64,000 bases of DNA from Nanobdellota archaeon (GTDB lineage: Archaea > Nanobdellota > Nanobdellia > Woesearchaeales > JBHPFW01): NCBI GenBank assembly GCA_042571645.1, contig JBHPFW010000002.1:3456-67455 (forward strand). Reading direction: 5' to 3'. The first letter of the stretch is position 1, and every line of letters starts with the position of its first letter. The position numbers and the translations under genes are program-made. The notes under the pieces are model-generated. The model searched no databases and had not been told where the DNA came from. It saw only the letters and a program-made list of their open reading frames with translations. This document shows, in pieces, positions 23,337 to 46,206 of the stretch.

Positions 23337-23492
23337 GGTATTATGTCGAATATTAGAGAATTTGGGTGTTTTAAGAGGTTTGAGCAGTGGTCAGGGGTAT
23401 TTAAATCTCAGCCACAATGTTTATATAATATTAAAAATCTAAATCTAAAAAAAGCATTGGAGAATTAATCACTCAAAGATTTTGGATATCAG

Positions 23493-38967: not shown

Positions 38968-40179
38968 CTAACCAAACTTTAATTGTCTGGCTTTAATTTT
39001 TTTAATTTTGTTGTCATTATAAACCATATTTCCCTTAATTAGGGTGGTAATAACAGCTCCTTTAACTTTCTTTCCATTATAAGGAGTCCATTTGCATTTG
39101 TAAAGTATTTTTGAGTTAGTTATTGTATTTTTCTTATTTATATCAACAATTACCAAATCTGCATCATAACCTTTCTTTATTTTGCCTTTGTTTTTTATGT
39201 TAAATATTTTTGCAGGATTTTCGCACATTAATTCCTGGAGTTTTGCTAAAGAGAGTTTTTTCTTATTTACTGCGTCAAGCATTAGTTGGAGAGAAGTCTG
39301 AACACCTGGAACACCATAAGTTTTTCCTGGCTTTTTCTTTTCTGCTTTTGTGTGTGGAGCATGATCTGTTGCAATTGTATCAACTAATCCTGAATTTATT
39401 GCTTTCCACAAAGCATTTTGGTCGGTTTTTGTTCTTAACTCTGGCTTCATTATATTGAATTTGTTTTGCTGGGATTTTGTCAAGAAAAGATGGTGCGGAG
39501 TTACTTCAACAAAGATTTTGTTTTTGTGTTTTTTTTGTTTCTTAGCTTTCTTTATTATAATAAGTTCAGAAGCTTTGGAAATATGACATAAGTATAGTCT
39601 ATTTTTTTTACTTAATTTTATTGCTTTTTTTACAGAGTTTCCTTCAGCATGGACTGCAACAAGTTTGTTTTTGTTGAGTGTGTTGAAAACTTCTTTCAAA
39701 CCATTGTCAAGCTTAAGATTTCCAGTAGTTTCATTCATGTAAACTTTTAATCCAGCAATATTTTTTGCTTTTTTTATTTCGGCAGAGTTTTTTCCATTTG
39801 TTCCTATATATAGTCCATAATTAACAATGCTTTTTTTAGCTGCCTTTCTCTTTTTGTTAAGTTCTTTAACAGTGAATGTTGGCGGAATTGTATTAGGCAT
39901 ATCTATTACAGAAGTTATTCCACCTGCAGCTGCTGCTCTTGATTCAGTTAGCCAATTGCCTTTATGAGTTAATCCTGGATCTCTGAAATGTACATGAGAG
40001 TCAATTATGCCTGGCAGGACTATGTTGTTTTTTGCATCAATTTTCTTAGCTTTATTTTGCTTGCTAGTCTTTATGGATTTGGCGATTTTGGCGATTTTGC
40101 CATTCTTGATTAGAATATCTGTCTCAGTTAATTTCCCATTCTTCGGGATCCTGCAGTTTTGGATTAGAATATTAGTCAT
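38968..40179 (-). CDS. pyrC: Dihydroorotase-family amidohydrolase
   Basis: PGIIDSHVHFRDPG, DMPNT, HAE, CHIS, EVTPHHL, TDHAPH. Confidence 0.85.
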   Translation of the reverse strand: MTNILIQNCRIPKNGKLTETDILIKNGKIAKIAKSIKTSKQNKAKKIDAKNNIVLPGIIDSHVHFRDPGLTHKGNWLTESRAAAAGGITSVIDMPNTIPPTFTVKELNKKRKAAKKSIVNYGLYIGTNGKNSAEIKKAKNIAGLKVYMNETTGNLKLDNGLKEVFNTLNKNKLVAVHAEGNSVKKAIKLSKKNRLYLCHISKASELIIIKKAKKQKKHKNKIFVEVTPHHLFLTKSQQNKFNIMKPELRTKTDQNALWKAINSGLVDTIATDHAPHTKAEKKKPGKTYGVPGVQTSLQLMLDAVNKKKLSLAKLQELMCENPAKIFNIKNKGKIKKGYDADLVIVDINKKNTITNSKILYKCKWTPYNGKKVKGAVITTLIKGNMVYNDNKIKKIKARQLKFG

Positions 40180-40269: not shown

Positions 40270-40285
40270 TGTCCAATATTAGACA
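40270..40285. promoter_or_regulatory. Putative arg operator upstream of argF
   Basis: TGTCCAATATTAGACA, about 36 nt before TTTATAAA. Confidence 0.78.
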
Positions 40286-40353
40286 TTCTTGTTCTTTTTG
40301 TTCTCAGCTTAGTCAATATCTTTATAAAACAGTCCAGCTCAGCTTAAACTACA

Positions 40354-41241
40354 ATGAAACACCTATTAACACTTATGGACTGGAAATCTGAGGAAATAAA
40401 GGAACTGATAGATAATGCTATAGAAGGCAAGAAAAAGCCTCTTAAGACTAAAAACGCAATGAAAGACAAGACTTTGGCTATGCTGTTCCAGAAGAATTCC
40501 ACTAGAACTAGGTTGAGTTTTGAGGTTGGTATGAAACAGCTAGGAGGAGATGCTATTTTCTTAGACTGGCAAAAAACCAATATCACAAAAGGCGAACTTC
40601 AGGATGAAGTCAAATGCATGGAAAGATATGTTGATATAATCATGGCTCGTGTGAATAAGCATGACACACTTAAGCAGATGGCAAAACATTCCAGCATTCC
40701 AATAATCAATGGTTTGTGTGACAAATTTCATCCATGCCAAGCATTAGCAGATTTAATAACAATAAAAGAAAAACTTGGCAAATTATACGATCTTAAATTA
40801 GCTTATATTGGTGATGGCAATAATGTCTGCAATAGTTTAATCATTGCCTGTACTTTAGTTGGAATGAAAATCTCTGTAGCTACACCAAAAGGTTATGAAC
40901 CCTTAAAAGAAGCGATTGATTTTGCTAAGAATTATTTGGAACTAACAAATGATCCTGCAGATGCAGTAAAAGATGCAGATGTAATCTACACAGACACTTG
41001 GGTTAGCATGGGCCAGGAAAAAGAAAAAGAAAAACGAATAAAAGCCTTTAAAGATTTTACTGTCGATAAAAAGCTAGTTAAAAAATCCGGCAAACCCAGT
41101 TTAATAATGCACTGTCTGCCAGCAAATGAAGGTTTGGAGATTACTCGTGAAATAATGGACAGTGAGAATTCTGTAATTTATGACCAAGCTGAAAACAGAA
41201 TGCACGCACAGAAAGCGGTATTGTTAAAAGTTCTGGAATAA
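40354..41241 (+). CDS. argF: Ornithine carbamoyltransferase
   Basis: FQKNSTRTR, HPCQ, GDGNN, DTWVSMG, HCLP, QAENR. Confidence 0.94.
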   Translation: MKHLLTLMDWKSEEIKELIDNAIEGKKKPLKTKNAMKDKTLAMLFQKNSTRTRLSFEVGMKQLGGDAIFLDWQKTNITKGELQDEVKCMERYVDIIMARVNKHDTLKQMAKHSSIPIINGLCDKFHPCQALADLITIKEKLGKLYDLKLAYIGDGNNVCNSLIIACTLVGMKISVATPKGYEPLKEAIDFAKNYLELTNDPADAVKDADVIYTDTWVSMGQEKEKEKRIKAFKDFTVDKKLVKKSGKPSLIMHCLPANEGLEITREIMDSENSVIYDQAENRMHAQKAVLLKVLE

Positions 41242-41712
41242 TTATTCATTGACTGCTTTTCTTCTTTCAGTTGTAGCTACAACTGAATATTCTGTTTCTT
41301 GACTTTTTGGTTTGTAGGGAATTAAGTTAGAAACAGAATGCGATGTCTGGAATCCAGTTAATTGTAAATCTGGACCAAATGAATCATATGTTGTTGAAAC
41401 TTCATCAAACTTAACACCAAAAGATTTTAGACAAGCTTCTAAGTTTTTTTGAAGAGCTAAAGGAATATTTTCTATGTCAGATCTAGACACAATATAATTT
41501 TCAAGAAGAGGAGTATTGTGCAATAGCTTAGCATCAGAATGACCATTAACCAGAAGAGGACTAGAAGGAGTACTTTGTTTAAAATCATATCTTAATTCAG
41601 TTTGTCTGTCATAAAGACTGCTTTTAAAACTAATTGAATCTATTTTATTACCAGTTGCTCTTACAACCATTTCACTTTCTTTGCCCAACAAAGGCACACT
41701 ATATTTTTCCAT
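41242..41712 (-). CDS. Hypothetical protein; likely start MEKYSVP
   Basis: ORF between argF and argG; the longer ORF-track start would overlap the argG operator. Confidence 0.55.
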   Translation of the reverse strand: MEKYSVPLLGKESEMVVRATGNKIDSISFKSSLYDRQTELRYDFKQSTPSSPLLVNGHSDAKLLHNTPLLENYIVSRSDIENIPLALQKNLEACLKSFGVKFDEVSTTYDSFGPDLQLTGFQTSHSVSNLIPYKPKSQETEYSVVATTERRKAVNE

Positions 41713-41786
41713 ATAAATTACGAATTTCGAAGTTGTATTTAAGGCTTTGCCAAGTAGTACTACTATAGAATATAAGCAAGTTATAA

Positions 41787-41802
41787 TGTCCAATATCAGA
41801 CA
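41787..41802. promoter_or_regulatory. Putative arg operator upstream of argG
   Basis: TGTCCAATATCAGACA, about 37 nt before TTTATAAA. Confidence 0.78.
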
Positions 41803-41875
41803 TATCTGTTCATATCTTGATTAAGGTAGGTCAATATCTTTATAAACAGAAATAGAACCCTTTAGACTGATAAAA

Positions 41876-43087
41876 ATGGCAAAAGAAAAAGTTGTACTAG
41901 CATATTCAGGTGGTTTAGACACATCCTGTATACTCAAATGGCTGATTGAAAAAGGCTATGAAATAATAGCAGTAGCTATTGATTTAGGCCAAAAAGAAGA
42001 TTTTAAGGAAGTAGAAGAAAAAGCTTTGAAAGTTGGGGCTTCTAAATTCCAGCTAATTAATGTTCAGGAAGAGTTTGTTAAAGATTTTGTTTTCCCAGCA
42101 ATTAAGGCTAATGCAAAATATGAAGGAAAGTATTTATTGGGTACTAGTTTAGCTAGACCTTTAATTGCAAAAAAATTAGTTGAAGTAGCTAAAAAAGAAA
42201 AAGCTCAGTATATTTCTCATGGTGCAACAGGCAAAGGCAATGACCAAGTTAGGTTTGAATTAACTGCTTCTGCATTAGCACCAGAATTAAAATTCATAGT
42301 ACCGTGGCGTACACAGGAATTCCTAGATCAATTCCAGGGAAGAAATGATTTAATTGAATATGCAGAAAAACATAATATTCCAGTAAAAGCTTCTAAAAAA
42401 GCACCTTGGAGTACAGACCCAAATGTTATGCACATTAGTTATGAAGCGGGCATATTAGAAGATCCTTGGACTCCACCACCAGAAGAGATGTATGAGATGG
42501 TAGTTCAGCCAAAAGATGCTCCAGACAAGGAAACAGTTTTGGAGATTGAATTTAAGAAAGGTATTCCTGTAAAAGTTAAACATGATGGAAAAGAAGTAAC
42601 TGGAGCTTTGAAATTGTTTGAATACCTAAATAAAGTCGGTGGAGAAAATGGTGTTGGAATAATTGACATGGTGGAAAACAGATTTGTTGGAATGAAATCT
42701 CGCGGCAGTTATGAAACTCCTGCTGGTACAATACTTTTTGAGGCTCATTTGGATATTGAAGGCATTACAATGGACCGTGAAGTCAAGCTATTACGTGATG
42801 GTTTAATACCAAAGTATGCTACTCTGATTTACAATGGTTTTTGGTTTGCACCAGAAATGGAATTCTTACAAGCAGCATTTGATAAAAGCCAAGAGAATGT
42901 AGAAGGCACAGTGAAGTTAAGTTTGTATAAAGGAAATATCAAATTACTTGGACGTAAATCACCAAATAGTTTATACGATGAGAAAATAGCTTCAATGGAT
43001 GAACATGGTGGCTATGACCAAAAAGATGCAACTGGATTTATTAAATTGAATGCTTTACGGTTAAAAGCTCGGAGTAAGAAGAAATAA
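41876..43087 (+). CDS. argG: Argininosuccinate synthase
   Basis: [39 protein letters not shown]. Confidence 0.97.
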
Positions 43088-43095
43088 GTTAATAT

Positions 43096-43201
43096 GAGTT
43101 CGGCAACGCCTAGAGTGCTAAGGTTTAACACATAGTTTTGCGTCAATGATCATGATTGCGAGATTATATAATACTTTGTTGGCACTCGCTCTGGCGAACT
43201 C
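43096..43201 (+). repeat. Family A structured element, copy 4 (partly degenerate)
   Basis: GAGTTCG/CGAACTC ends; CGCCTAGAGTGCTAAG and CATGATTGCGAGAT core; begins 9 nt after the argG stop. Confidence 0.9.
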
Positions 43202-43224
43202 AAAAATTAAGGAAAAGAAATAAA

Positions 43225-43479
43225 ATGGAATGGATCATCTTAATAGGACTAACTGCTGGCATATTGACTACTGCTTCATTCTTACCTCAGGTAATTAAGA
43301 CTATAAAACTTAAAGAAACAAAGGATATTTCTCTGGCAATGTATTCTATTATTTCCACTGGAATATTTTTATGGTTGGTTTATGGTTTATTAATCAAGGA
43401 TTTACCAGTTGTTCTTGCTAATGCAGTATCATTAATATTAGTTCTGACAATGGTTGGATTGAAATTGAAGTATGGTTAA
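43225..43479 (+). CDS. SemiSWEET/PQ-loop transporter; likely start MEWIILIG
   Basis: SFLPQVIKT, TKDISL, WLVYG, LANAV. Confidence 0.9.
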   Translation: MEWIILIGLTAGILTTASFLPQVIKTIKLKETKDISLAMYSIISTGIFLWLVYGLLIKDLPVVLANAVSLILVLTMVGLKLKYG

Positions 43480-44163
43480 TCATTTCTTTTTATCAATAAG
43501 TGCTGGAAAATAATAATCAAATACAAAAAGAGATTTCTTAGAGAAAGCTTTGTTAATACGAGTTTTTCTCGGCAAGAACCATTTTGCTAAAGCAGACTCT
43601 ATATTATGCTCTTCTAATTTTTTGATATTTTTATCATTAAAGTCCCAAAAGAATAACTCAATTGCATCAAGTCCTGCTTCTAAAACTTTTGAGAAATTTG
43701 GTTTTAACCTAAATACGCCGCCGTTGCATAATTTTTTCCATCCTTTTGGAAGTTTTCCTGCGTTTGATAGATAGTTAAGATTTTGCGAAGCAAAATATAC
43801 TTCTTTTGTTTTAATATCCTTTAAAATATTTTGAATTTCTTTCTTAGTTATTGATTTATCTTTAATATCTAAAAACAATATGCTTTTGTCTTGTACAAGT
43901 TCAGCAATTTCTTTTAAAGTTGCAACAGTAGGATATTTTTGTTTTAATTTATTGAGTGGTTTCTTAAAGAAATATTTTGCCAATAAATATTCAAAAGTAT
44001 TACCATGATAACAGAATATCACATCATCAGTGCTTTTTCTTAAATCAATCTCAATAATATCAGGTTTGTGTTTAAGGCTTTCTTTAATTGCTTCTATAGA
44101 ATTCTCTACACCAAAACAATCACCGCCTTTGTGAGCTAAGATTAGAGGTTTCATTATCTCCAT
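43480..44163 (-). CDS. Glycerophosphodiester phosphodiesterase-like protein
   Basis: AHKG, ENS, EIDLRKSTD, CYH, LDIK. Confidence 0.82.
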   Translation of the reverse strand: MEIMKPLILAHKGGDCFGVENSIEAIKESLKHKPDIIEIDLRKSTDDVIFCYHGNTFEYLLAKYFFKKPLNKLKQKYPTVATLKEIAELVQDKSILFLDIKDKSITKKEIQNILKDIKTKEVYFASQNLNYLSNAGKLPKGWKKLCNGGVFRLKPNFSKVLEAGLDAIELFFWDFNDKNIKKLEEHNIESALAKWFLPRKTRINKAFSKKSLFVFDYYFPALIDKKK

Positions 44164-44705
44164 TTAATACTACAACCTTGGCTTGGCAAGAATTCCTTAC
44201 TAACTTTTCCAGATTCTAAGAATTCATTAATCACTTCTTCCATTGTGTTTTCATTAGCATTATCATCAGGACTCATTGCATCATTTAAACGACCATGCCA
44301 AATTAATTTGAGATCTTTGTCGAATAGATAGGGATCAGGCGTGCATACTGCATCATAGGCTTTAGCAACTTCTTGTGTAGAATCGATTAAATAAGGAAAA
44401 TCAAAACCTTCCTGCTCAGCAATTTTTTGCATATTCTCAAAACTATCGTCTTGATAATTAGGATTATCATTTGGATTAATTGCTATTAAATTAACACCTT
44501 TGTCTTTGAATTTGTCAGCCAAATCTTTAATCACCGCAAACTTAGTAATAACATAAGGACAATGATTACACATAAATATAATCAAAGTGGCTTTTTTTCC
44601 TTTCAGATCCTTTAATGTGTGCATGGCTTCATCTGTGCCTTTCAGATTAAAGTCTGGAGCAGAATCTCCTGGTTTGAGTTGTTGGGTTGATTTTAAGAGT
44701 GTCAT
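44154..44705 (-). CDS. Thioredoxin-fold (AhpC/TSA) protein
   Basis: APDFNL, FMCNHCPYV, FDFPYL, AVCTPD. Confidence 0.9.
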   Translation of the reverse strand: MTLLKSTQQLKPGDSAPDFNLKGTDEAMHTLKDLKGKKATLIIFMCNHCPYVITKFAVIKDLADKFKDKGVNLIAINPNDNPNYQDDSFENMQKIAEQEGFDFPYLIDSTQEVAKAYDAVCTPDPYLFDKDLKLIWHGRLNDAMSPDDNANENTMEEVINEFLESGKVSKEFLPSQGCSIKWR

Positions 44706-44753
44706 AAGAAGAAAAGGTTTAATTATTACTTTTAAAGATTATCTAATATAAAT

Positions 44754-44769
44754 TGTCTAATATCAGACA
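44754..44769. promoter_or_regulatory. Putative arg operator upstream of argH
   Basis: TGTCTAATATCAGACA, about 37 nt before TTTATAAA. Confidence 0.78.
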
Positions 44770-44835
44770 TTAATGTCAAATATCTCTAAAATATAGGTCA
44801 ATAGCTTTATAAACAAAACTTGCATAATTGCTGAT

Positions 44836-46206
44836 ATGGCAAAATTATGGGATAAAGGATCTAGTAAAGGAAAAGGCACAAATAAGGAAACAGCCAAAGC
44901 AGTAGAGAAATTTACTGTTGGAAATGACTATTTGCTGGATAAGCAGCTTGTTTGTGCAGATGCATTGACTACTGCAGCTCATGCTATGATGCTAAAGAAG
45001 ATAGGTATTCTTGATAAAAATGAGCTGAAAAAACTCAAAAAAGAATTAAAGAAAATCTTTAATCTTGGAACTAAAGATAAATTTGAAATCTCACAAAAAG
45101 ATGAAGATGTTCACACTGCTATAGAAAATCATTTAACTAAAACTGTTGGCAAAGCAGGCAAAAAGATTCATACTGGCAAATCAAGAAATGACCAAGTTCT
45201 TACAGACACAAAACTTTATACAAAATATATGCTGTTAAAAATAGAAAAAGAACTAATTGATTTTGCAAACACATTACAAAAGCTGGCAAAAAAAGAACAA
45301 TTTACTGTAATGCCTGGTTATACCCATATGCAGAAAGCAATGCCTAGTTCAATTGGATTATGGGCAGCAGGTTTTTTAGAATCTACGCTAAATGATTATG
45401 AAACAATAAACTTTGCTTACACACAAAATGATTCATGTCCATTAGGAAGTGCTGCAGGTTATGGTGTAAATCTGCCATTAGACCGCGAATATGCTGCAAA
45501 ATTATTAGGATTCAAAAAAATTGACAATGCAGTTACTTATCCGCAGATTTCCCGAGGAAAAACAGAATTAAATACACTAAATGCACTAAACAATATAATG
45601 CTTACTATAAATAAATTAGCAACAGACTTATCCATATTTACAATGAGTGAATTTGATTATTTCAAAGTACCAGATGGATTCACAACAGGCTCAAGTATTA
45701 TGCCGCAAAAGAAAAATCAGGATGTTTGTGAACTAATAAAAGGGAAATCTGCAGTAATGCAGGGTTATATTGCACAATTAAATTCTCTTTATCTTAATTT
45801 AATGTCTGGTTATAATCGTAATATGCAGTTAGTTAAAGAACCCTTAATTAATGGTCTAAGTTTATGTTTAGAAACATTAAGCATCACAAACATGCTTATG
45901 AAAAAAATAAAAGTGAACAAAGAATCTTTAACAAAAGCAATGACTCCAGAGTTATTTGCAGCAGATTATGCAAATGAATTAGTCAAGCAGGGTGCTACCT
46001 TCCGTGATGCATACAAAGTTGTTGGCAAGAATCTTGATACTCTTAAAGCAATTGATCCGGTTAAGAATATTAAATCAAAGAAATCAACTGGAATGACTGG
46101 GAATTTAAAATTAAATAAAGCTAAATCAGCAATAAATAAGATGAAATTAGACCATAATAAGAAGAATAAATCATTCTCAGGAGCTATTAATAAGCTTCTA
46201 GCCTAG
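44836..46206 (+). CDS. argH: Argininosuccinate lyase
   Basis: KLW, EDVH, HTGKSRNDQ, PGYTHMQ, GSSIMPQKKN, FRDAY. Confidence 0.95.
   Translation: MAKLWDKGSSKGKGTNKETAKAVEKFTVGNDYLLDKQLVCADALTTAAHAMMLKKIGILDKNELKKLKKELKKIFNLGTKDKFEISQKDEDVHTAIENHLTKTVGKAGKKIHTGKSRNDQVLTDTKLYTKYMLLKIEKELIDFANTLQKLAKKEQFTVMPGYTHMQKAMPSSIGLWAAGFLESTLNDYETINFAYTQNDSCPLGSAAGYGVNLPLDREYAAKLLGFKKIDNAVTYPQISRGKTELNTLNALNNIMLTINKLATDLSIFTMSEFDYFKVPDGFTTGSSIMPQKKNQDVCELIKGKSAVMQGYIAQLNSLYLNLMSGYNRNMQLVKEPLINGLSLCLETLSITNMLMKKIKVNKESLTKAMTPELFAADYANELVKQGATFRDAYKVVGKNLDTLKAIDPVKNIKSKKSTGMTGNLKLNKAKSAINKMKLDHNKKNKSFSGAINKLLA

Follow-up and report, generated by a model that had tools for sequence, protein, structure and literature searches.

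Three 16-bp palindromes in the promoters of argF, argG and argH of a Nanobdellota archaeon of the order Woesearchaeales appear to be the operators of an arginine regulon. They lie in a stretch of 64,000 nucleotides (the window; C2:3456-67455 of the assembly). Our reading, to which we give a probability of roughly 0.6, is that they are bound by a protein that joins a DUF7523-like N-terminal domain to tandem ACT domains, senses its ligand through the latter and represses the arg genes. The narrower statement, that the arg sites are operators of this protein family, is safer, and we regard it as very likely. That the regulator binds DNA, which effector it senses and in which direction it acts are what we infer from the sequence evidence laid out below.

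The assembly comprises 1,493,466 bases (1.49 Mb) with 34% G+C in 55 contigs and is estimated to be 82% complete. A scan of all of it for TGTCYAATATYAGACA returned exactly three sites at 0 or 1 mismatch, all on the + strand and one each 5' of argF, argG and argH, at the positions (40270, 41787 and 44754) reported in the initial annotation. The motif is thus specific rather than frequent in the genome, as the proposal of an argF/argG/argH regulon made there demands. At up to 2 mismatches there are 8 strand-hits in the window versus 0.24 expected, and none of 100 dinucleotide shuffles gave 8. A fourth match with 2 mismatches, at 23344, lies inside an open reading frame (ORF) and scores below 10 bits by the family matrix; it was treated as chance and excluded from the set.

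Each palindrome is followed, after a gap of 35, 36 and 36 nt for argF, argG and argH respectively (51-52 nt start to start), by the sequence TTTATAAA. The near-constant gap had been recognized before, at a slightly overstated 36-37 nt. The TTTATAAA copies start at 40321, 41839 and 44806, located 30-37 nt 5' of each ATG, a distance that fits an archaeal TATA box of a leaderless or near-leaderless mRNA and from which putative start sites were deduced. Immediately 5' of them, the AG(G)TCAATA(T/G)C described earlier is present as TAGTCAATATC, AGGTCAATATC and AGGTCAATAGC in the same gene order, and within it lies the right half of a further box, the proximal one. The elements of the three promoters are as follows; bit scores come from a weight matrix for the regulator family, built from 126 boxes that all belong to other genomes.

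40270 to 40285, + strand: argF promoter, predicted distal box of the operator, TGTCCAATATTAGACA, 15.8 bits, within the 174-nt pyrC-argF intergenic region
40290 to 40294, + strand: half-site TGTTC of argF, 20 nt past the start of the distal box, its TGT invariant in the promoter alignments
40300 to 40315, + strand: proximal degenerate box of argF, GTTCTCAGCTTAGTCA, whose right half AGTCA ends 5 nt 5' of TATA and overlaps the expected B recognition element (BRE)
40321 to 40328, + strand: putative TATA box of argF, TTTATAAA, 33 nt (start to start) 5' of the ATG
41787 to 41802, + strand: argG promoter, predicted distal box of the operator, TGTCCAATATCAGACA, which at 16.5 bits leads the intergenic sites of the genome
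41807 to 41811, + strand: half-site TGTTC of argG at +20, from the promoter alignments
41818 to 41833, + strand: proximal box of argG, TGATTAAGGTAGGTCA, 6.0 bits, ending 5 nt 5' of TATA
41839 to 41846, + strand: putative TATA box of argG, TTTATAAA, 37 nt 5' of the ATG
44754 to 44769, + strand: argH promoter, predicted distal box of the operator, TGTCTAATATCAGACA, 15.4 bits
44774 to 44778, + strand: half-site TGTCA of argH at +20, from the promoter alignments
44785 to 44800, + strand: proximal box of argH, TCTAAAATATAGGTCA, with conservation limited to the right half GGTCA, ending 5 nt 5' of TATA
44806 to 44813, + strand: putative TATA box of argH, TTTATAAA, 30 nt 5' of the ATG

The conserved region spans about 60 bp. 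It runs from the distal palindrome through a TGTYM half-site at +20 and a degenerate proximal box, which closes with (G)GTCA, to TATA. The (G)GTCA forms the right half of this 16-bp box, whose start is 30-31 nt past that of the distal one and whose end is 5 nt short of TATA; the left half is degenerate in this genome, and the argF copy is orthologous to TGTCC-N6-GGGCA of three relatives (L089, L098 and L108). The three promoters align in blocks alone (palindrome, TGTYM half-site, (T)AG(G)TCAATA(T/G)C and TATA). Because the spacers differ among them, the blocks appear to have been kept by selection and not by recent copying. An explanation of the palindrome at the RNA level found no footing: Rfam families and tRNAs were looked for in the window and none was found, and arms of 4-5 bp are, by inspection, not long enough to form a stable RNA hairpin.

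The same layout occurs at arg-side promoters of six other Woesearchaeal genomes (L087, L089, L098, L099, L107 and L108), in the form TGTCYAATATYRGACA - N4 - TGTYT.ATTTGTCY.. - GG(G/T)C - 5 nt - TATA. The TGT of the +20 half-site is invariant in the three promoters here and in nine promoters from seven genomes. Additional phased half-sites are present in the promoters of relatives, a pattern that suggests a higher-order complex. These comparisons bear on the possibility that the three promoters resemble each other as leftovers of recent promoter duplication, dating from the split of an ancestral argG-argF-argH operon, and do not contain a selected site. Relatives do retain argG-argH or argG-argF-argH operons, and the three promoters probably share an origin. 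However, identity is restricted to the boxes and TATA while the spacers have diverged, and the same blocks are kept in two of the six genomes whose ArgG is just 33% identical to that of this genome. We consider such a relic very improbable.

Among 61 genomes of the order searched for argG, the gene is present in 15, namely 14 relatives and this genome. A box of at least 10 bits lies 5' of the gene that opens the arg operon in 8 of the 10 relatives that have both argG and a strong match to the regulator, so that footprinting of orthologous arg promoters recovers the site. In one genome (G060), a 19.9-bit box about 150 nt 5' of argJ is the sole box above 10 bits in 13 kb; it precedes the operon argJ-argBD-argC-argG-argF-argH, and the regulator gene is on another contig. 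That operon includes a gene (L113:1184-3169, - strand) for a fused ArgB-ArgD of 661 aa, with AA_kinase and class-III aminotransferase domains. In the three testable genomes with argG and without a strong regulator match there is no box before argG, which may be operon-internal there.

The candidate regulator emerged from these relatives. Several of them carry TGTYC-N6-GRACA boxes 5' of argG together with a divergent gene for a protein of about 210 aa, which has a weak Pfam DUF7523 match at its N-terminus and ACT_7 at its C-terminus and whose public names are 'ACT domain-containing protein' or 'hypothetical', nothing more specific. The initial annotation had proposed a regulatory site without being able to name its regulator; the site stands, and a candidate can now be put to it. 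With one genome per species, 226 relatives of this arg-type family were found, by record titles mostly Woesearchaeota/Nanoarchaeota, unclassified archaeal metagenome-assembled genomes (MAGs), or machine-labelled 'uncultured Methanosarcinales/Thermoplasmatales' assemblies. In the best 80 loci, an exact TGTYY-N6-RRACA lies within 350 nt 5' of the regulator gene in 70, and the density of such sites is 89 in 27.7 kb of regulator-upstream sequence versus 22 in 381 kb (55-fold, P = 2e-82). They usually come as a pair, with one box by the regulator's TATA and the second about 30 bp off by the TATA of the divergent gene. The upstream neighbour (n=73) encodes ArgG in 22 loci, ArgF in 5, an AA_kinase+NAT protein in 2 and ArgH in 1, and in about 30 of the 73 the regulator gene is divergent from arg genes. 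These neighbourhoods conserve no further regulator gene, and no enzyme partner is constant across them. The family profile matches 2,053 clusters at 50% identity in a search of 1.84 billion representatives, and a literature search found no description of a family combining a DUF7523-like domain with tandem ACT.

The divergent partner in 11 of the 73 loci is a protein of about 256 aa without a Pfam match (AGHIYTNE ... VFIDNYNP ... LLDACLY ... LDEQY..QQK), found at L036:1564-2334 (- strand) and in L037, L039, L042, L043, L047, L050, L051, L052, L064 and L099. It is a candidate enzyme of arginine-related metabolism.

Many relatives also have up to three weaker full-length paralogs of the regulator. 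Those that we fetched are divergent from dapB-dapA, from genes for an amino-acid kinase and a diaminopimelate-type decarboxylase, or from a serA/serC-like pair. The lysine-linked paralogs have an altered third helix, S/N-Y/F-G/A-N-L-A-E, and a palindrome, TGTTATTATTATAACA, of the same 5-6-5 geometry. A scan for this type found 257 relatives, and its best 80 loci belong by title mostly to DPANN or unclassified archaeal MAGs, with about 19 from Spirochaetia and a few from Aenigmatarchaeota MAGs. In 48 of these 80 loci the paralog adjoins dapA, dapB or lysA, and in 53 an exact TGTTA-N6-TAACA lies within 200 nt 5' of it (54 sites in 17.4 kb versus 2 in 353 kb, P = 3e-69), the box standing just 3' of TATA. 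Since protein helix and palindrome change together between paralogs, the protein itself is likely to read the box, and this is the strongest argument for direct reading. Comparison of the two types suggests a specificity code in which an N-Y-S-x-L-x-R helix goes with TGTYY and an S-Y-G-N-L-A-E helix with TGTTA. Within the arg-type subfamily, a tabulation of the residue after the invariant Arg against C or T at box position 4 was uninformative.

In the Spirochaetia MAGs, lysine-type paralogs of the regulator (41-48% identical) stand beside dapA, with AT-rich TAACA/TGTTA repeats in front (L208, L209, L212-L215, L218, L223, L225, L226, L228, L230, L231, L236, L241, L244 and L245); the set includes a complete 4.3-Mb chromosome, OY782041.1. 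The regulator family has probably crossed between archaea and bacteria.

The structural models agree with a two-part protein. An AlphaFold2 model made from a 45-sequence alignment of relatives, and not from this genome's own fragment, reached a predicted local distance difference test score (pLDDT) of 93. In it, residues 1-77 form four helices, of which the fourth is long, and two ACT units follow. The C-terminal 140 aa or so match the aspartate-kinase regulatory domains 3c1m, 3tvi, 2zho and 2dtj (Foldseek E about 1e-9), and the top 50 Foldseek hits for this part are all aspartate-kinase regulatory domains, with TM-scores, normalised to target length, of 0.6-0.66 for free-standing domains. The ACT_7 match is 28.7 bits versus a cut-off of 27 in the protein of close relatives, not in this genome's fragment. 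Modelled alone from this genome's own sequence, the N-domain reached a pLDDT of 81. Among 41 family members, DUF7523 is matched in all and a winged-helix Pfam family, weakly, in 14. Residues N27, S29, L31 and R33 in the third helix and A46, L48, A50, R52 and R53 in the fourth are invariant, giving the stretch N-Y-S-x-L-x-R ... A-x-L-x-A-x-R-R. The DUF7523-like domain would be the part that binds DNA.

It is conceivable instead that another transcription factor binds the palindromes and that the ACT protein is a co-regulated member of the regulon, as a metabolic sensor or the regulatory subunit of an enzyme. The N-domain is without similarity to known DNA-binding folds in the PDB and tandem ACT domains otherwise regulate enzymes, both of which would suit this idea. 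It is hard to square, however, with two paralogous subfamilies that each have their own 5-6-5 palindrome, concentrated more than 50-fold beside the genes of that subfamily, and that differ in the putative recognition helix, or with neighbourhoods that conserve no other regulator gene and no constant enzyme partner. We therefore judge it unlikely and retain the ACT protein as the one that reads the boxes.

This genome has its own copy of the regulator, outside the window. At C20:3-269 (- strand) the N-terminal 88 aa are present and the gene is cut by the contig end; the fragment matches the family profile at E = 1e-34 and is 70% identical to L076 and 68% to L084. The missing C-terminal part was looked for on all other contigs and was not found. 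The whole assembly was scanned with the matrix, and a crude ORF caller supplied the intergenic mask. The top four intergenic sites were those of argG (16.5 bits), argF (15.8), C20:538 in the promoter of the regulator itself (15.7) and argH (15.4). All three arg sites (15.4-16.5 bits) fit the TGTYY-N6-RRACA form. The C20:538 box, which reads TGTCCAAAACGAAACA in the direction of the gene, lies directly against the TATA of the regulator operon, which implies autoregulation; an identical box is present in L076. The order of that operon is hairpin leader, small ORF, regulator.

A second box, TGTCCTATTTTAAACT, lies at +20 in C20:538-573 (12.1 bits). The small ORF that it faces, MKHKTSVSFDEKTIEAIRELIRSRYFRNKSHVVEYAVHKLIDEIK..., is on the opposite strand, is ribbon-helix-helix-like and may be a further target. 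The fifth-best intergenic site, TGTTTAAAACCAAACA at C30:5303-5318 (14.7 bits), abuts a TTTAAATA box and precedes a gene for a MarR-like helix-turn-helix plus nucleotidyltransferase protein. It has no support from relatives and could be chance or a further regulon member. Relatives likewise give no support to an intergenic site of 11.8 bits at about 61168 of the window.

In the nearest clade (L080, L087, L089, L098, L099, L107, L108 and L111), the regulator operon opens with a conserved hairpin of about 55 nt, UUGAGCGRURUGUCUUUUUG..AGAGUACCACAAAG..CAAGRCAUAKACGCUCC. RNAalifold gave it 17 pairs, of which 5 show compensatory changes, with none broken in the outer 13, and it matched no Rfam family. 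A small conserved ORF of 30-37 aa, MQKDLSEWIDVS..., follows 3' of the hairpin. In this genome (C20:270-540, - strand) the small ORF is present, with a different, G+C-rich hairpin. Through the leader hairpin the regulator may be controlled a second time, at the RNA level.

We picture regulation as follows. A dimer of the one-component regulator of about 210 aa would bind each TGTYY-N6-RRACA box. The half-sites are centred 11 bp from each other, about one helical turn, a spacing that fits a dimer seated in two consecutive major grooves. The distal palindromes would be the high-affinity operators. The weaker downstream box, ending 5 nt before TATA, would cover the position of the BRE, and because the two boxes are 30-31 bp apart from centre to centre, about three turns, they would present the same face of the DNA. 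Cooperative occupation of both boxes would then block TFB/TBP and turn argF, argG and argH off, most likely when arginine fills the C-terminal tandem ACT domain, which is predicted to sense the amino acid. Arginine is the likely co-repressor because the gene linkage is to arginine genes. The regulator would also control its own gene through the box abutting its TATA. That box and the proximal box over the BRE are why we favour ligand-dependent repression by occlusion of TFB/TBP.

The initial annotation had leaned towards an activator from the position of the palindrome upstream of BRE and TATA; with the palindrome seen as the distal site and a proximal box covering the BRE, the positions now favour repression. 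The same protein could nevertheless activate the arg promoters from the same sites, like LysM and Ptr2. At low arginine, or in the presence of ornithine or citrulline, it would recruit TBP/TFB to a weak BRE/TATA; arginine would release it, and its own promoter could still be repressed. Ptr2 of Methanocaldococcus jannaschii is an Lrp-family activator that recruits TBP and has two upstream palindromic sites beside BRE/TATA; its likeness to the present case, palindromic sites next to BRE/TATA, bears on this alternative alone. The strong box is centred about 73 nt 5' of the deduced start site, a typical activator position, the BRE of the arg promoters is poor (CAATATC) compared with the AGTAAAA at many relatives' regulator promoters, and the divergent, autoregulated arrangement resembles activator-type systems. 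Against these points stand four positions typical of repressors: the conserved proximal box ends 5 nt from TATA, the arg-side box of relatives lies within 2-5 nt of TATA, the own-promoter boxes of this clade directly abut TATA, and the lysine-paralog box is just 3' of TATA. Activation is a serious alternative, clearly less probable than repression.

Several observations count against arginine-dependent repression by the ACT protein as a whole. The proximal boxes in this genome are degenerate, at 6.0 bits or below, and the BRE-like sequence of the arg promoters (AATATC) is weak, as in activator-dependent archaeal promoters. Ten relatives carry the regulator but no argG, so the regulon must extend beyond the arg genes. 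With coding sequence included in the matrix scan, the same four sites rank 3rd, 7th, 8th and 9th, and the split between intergenic and coding sequence relied on a crude ORF caller. The isolated N-domain had no significant fold match in the PDB by Foldseek, and a PDB sequence profile search returned noise; the hints of a DNA-binding fold come down to the weak winged-helix match and the conservation pattern. Finally, the regulator gene of this assembly is cut by the contig end.

The regulator is a functional analogue of ArgR with its ARG boxes, of LysM-type Lrp proteins and, in layout, of TrpY, and belongs to none of these families. We know of no characterised regulator dedicated to arginine, of the kind that ArgR is in bacteria, for the arg genes of archaea. 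Likeness to ArgR/AhrC lies in the predicted end-product sensing, the phased pairs of palindromes over the core promoter, the scattered arg sites and the control of the regulator's own gene. The proteins themselves are unrelated, the sensor here being a tandem ACT and not the ArgR hexamerisation domain, and the promoter is of the archaeal TATA/BRE kind. ARG boxes are 18 bp long, with the consensus TNTGAATWWWWATTCANW, and come in pairs 2-3 bp apart, whereas the site here is a 16-bp TGTYY-N6-RRACA with, by inspection, the second box 14-15 bp away. That the motif does not resemble an ArgR box had been remarked before, and the 16-bp length and the half-sites TGTCY/RGACA bear this out. The genome, at 82% completeness, has no match to Arg_repressor (PF01316) at E <= 0.01, compared with 9 of 14 control genomes that do.

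TrpY of Methanothermobacter thermautotrophicus is an amino-acid-responsive regulator encoded divergently from a biosynthetic operon, autoregulated, with repeated TRP boxes over BRE/TATA. It resembles the present system in layout (divergent, autoregulated, boxes at BRE/TATA) and differs in protein family, box sequence and amino acid. The aspartate kinase regulatory domain binds Thr or Lys at its ACT interfaces. The regulatory (beta) subunit or domain of that enzyme shares the tandem ACT fold, but the ACT part here is fused to a helical N-domain and not to a kinase, and it is tied genetically to palindromic DNA. Lrp/AsnC proteins (feast/famine regulatory proteins, FFRP) are alike in being small one-component regulators in which a DNA-binding domain is coupled with a beta-alpha-beta-beta-alpha-beta module for amino-acid binding; they control amino-acid biosynthesis, often from several phased sites. 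Archaeal examples are LysM at Sulfolobus lysWXJK (PMC3597687), FL11, and Grp (PMC2504300). LysM is an activator that lysine releases. The sensor here is, in contrast, a double ACT of the aspartokinase type, and the N-domain matches DUF7523 alone; the candidate's domain matches are DUF7523, ACT_7 and ACT, with no HTH_AsnC or AsnC_trans_reg (RAM). An ordinary Lrp was not found in the genome, which has weak PF01037 matches alone, inside ORFs of 328 and 344 aa.

The genes around the sites are listed below. The identities of argF, argG and argH were taken from scores above curated NCBIfam equivalog cut-offs.

38968 to 40179, - strand: dihydroorotase (pyrC), divergent from argF; Pfam Amidohydro_1; TIGR00857, 305 bits versus a cut-off of 279
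40354 to 41241, + strand: argF, ornithine carbamoyltransferase; Pfam OTCace and OTCace_N; TIGR00658, 393 bits versus a cut-off of 281
41242 to 41712, - strand: orphan ORF of 156 aa counted from its first ATG, pointing away from argG; no Pfam or NCBIfam match
41876 to 43087, + strand: argG, argininosuccinate synthase; matched by Pfam; NF001770, 571 bits versus a cut-off of 334
44836 to 46206, + strand: argH, argininosuccinate lyase; Pfam Lyase_1 and ASL_C2; TIGR00838, 329.5 bits versus a cut-off of 279.5

As noted in the initial annotation, the three arg genes are separated by unrelated genes: the orphan ORF, a SemiSWEET gene, a GDPD-like gene and a peroxiredoxin gene. The orphan ORF occupies the position, divergent from argG, where relatives have the regulator gene. 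It was rejected as the regulator, having no Pfam or NCBIfam match and an hhalign probability of 0.6% against the regulator family. On the other side, the products of pyrC and argF each belong to one of the two carbamoyl-phosphate-using pathways, and their genes diverge over the single 174-nt region that holds the operator; pyrC may share this putative argF operator.

No match to argB, argC, argD or argJ was found by tblastn in this 82%-complete assembly. A carbamoyl-phosphate synthetase is encoded (carB was found), and the arginine route otherwise consists of the final three steps. The upstream region of carA/carB, on C22, has no box. Given carB and the failure to find argB, argC, argD and argJ, the regulated module would convert scavenged ornithine or citrulline to arginine. 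The earlier remark that regulated arginine synthesis is notable in a lineage poor in amino acid biosynthesis holds in part, for these final three steps with carbamoyl-phosphate synthetase and with argG in 15 of the 61 genomes. The ornithine-to-arginine module retained by this genome would be actively controlled and not a decaying remnant.

More broadly, the family is probably an undescribed group of one-component, amino-acid-sensing transcription factors that combine a new helical DNA-binding domain with an aspartokinase-type double ACT. It would have radiated into arginine-specific, lysine-specific and probably serine-specific paralogs, each with a TGTnn-N6-nnACA operator. In Woesearchaeales it would be the principal system for amino-acid regulation, and further members would occur in other DPANN archaea and, by record titles, in Thermoplasmata-labelled and Spirochaetia MAGs. 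As far as we know, transcription control in DPANN archaea is almost unstudied. The outcome here is a testable regulon, a named protein family of about 2,000 clusters at 50% identity and operators predicted to the base, with each paralog tied to arginine, lysine or serine genes. The regulation of the few biosynthetic modules kept by these reduced, host-dependent archaea thereby becomes experimentally accessible, and the family could yield compact amino-acid-responsive switches for archaeal genetics.

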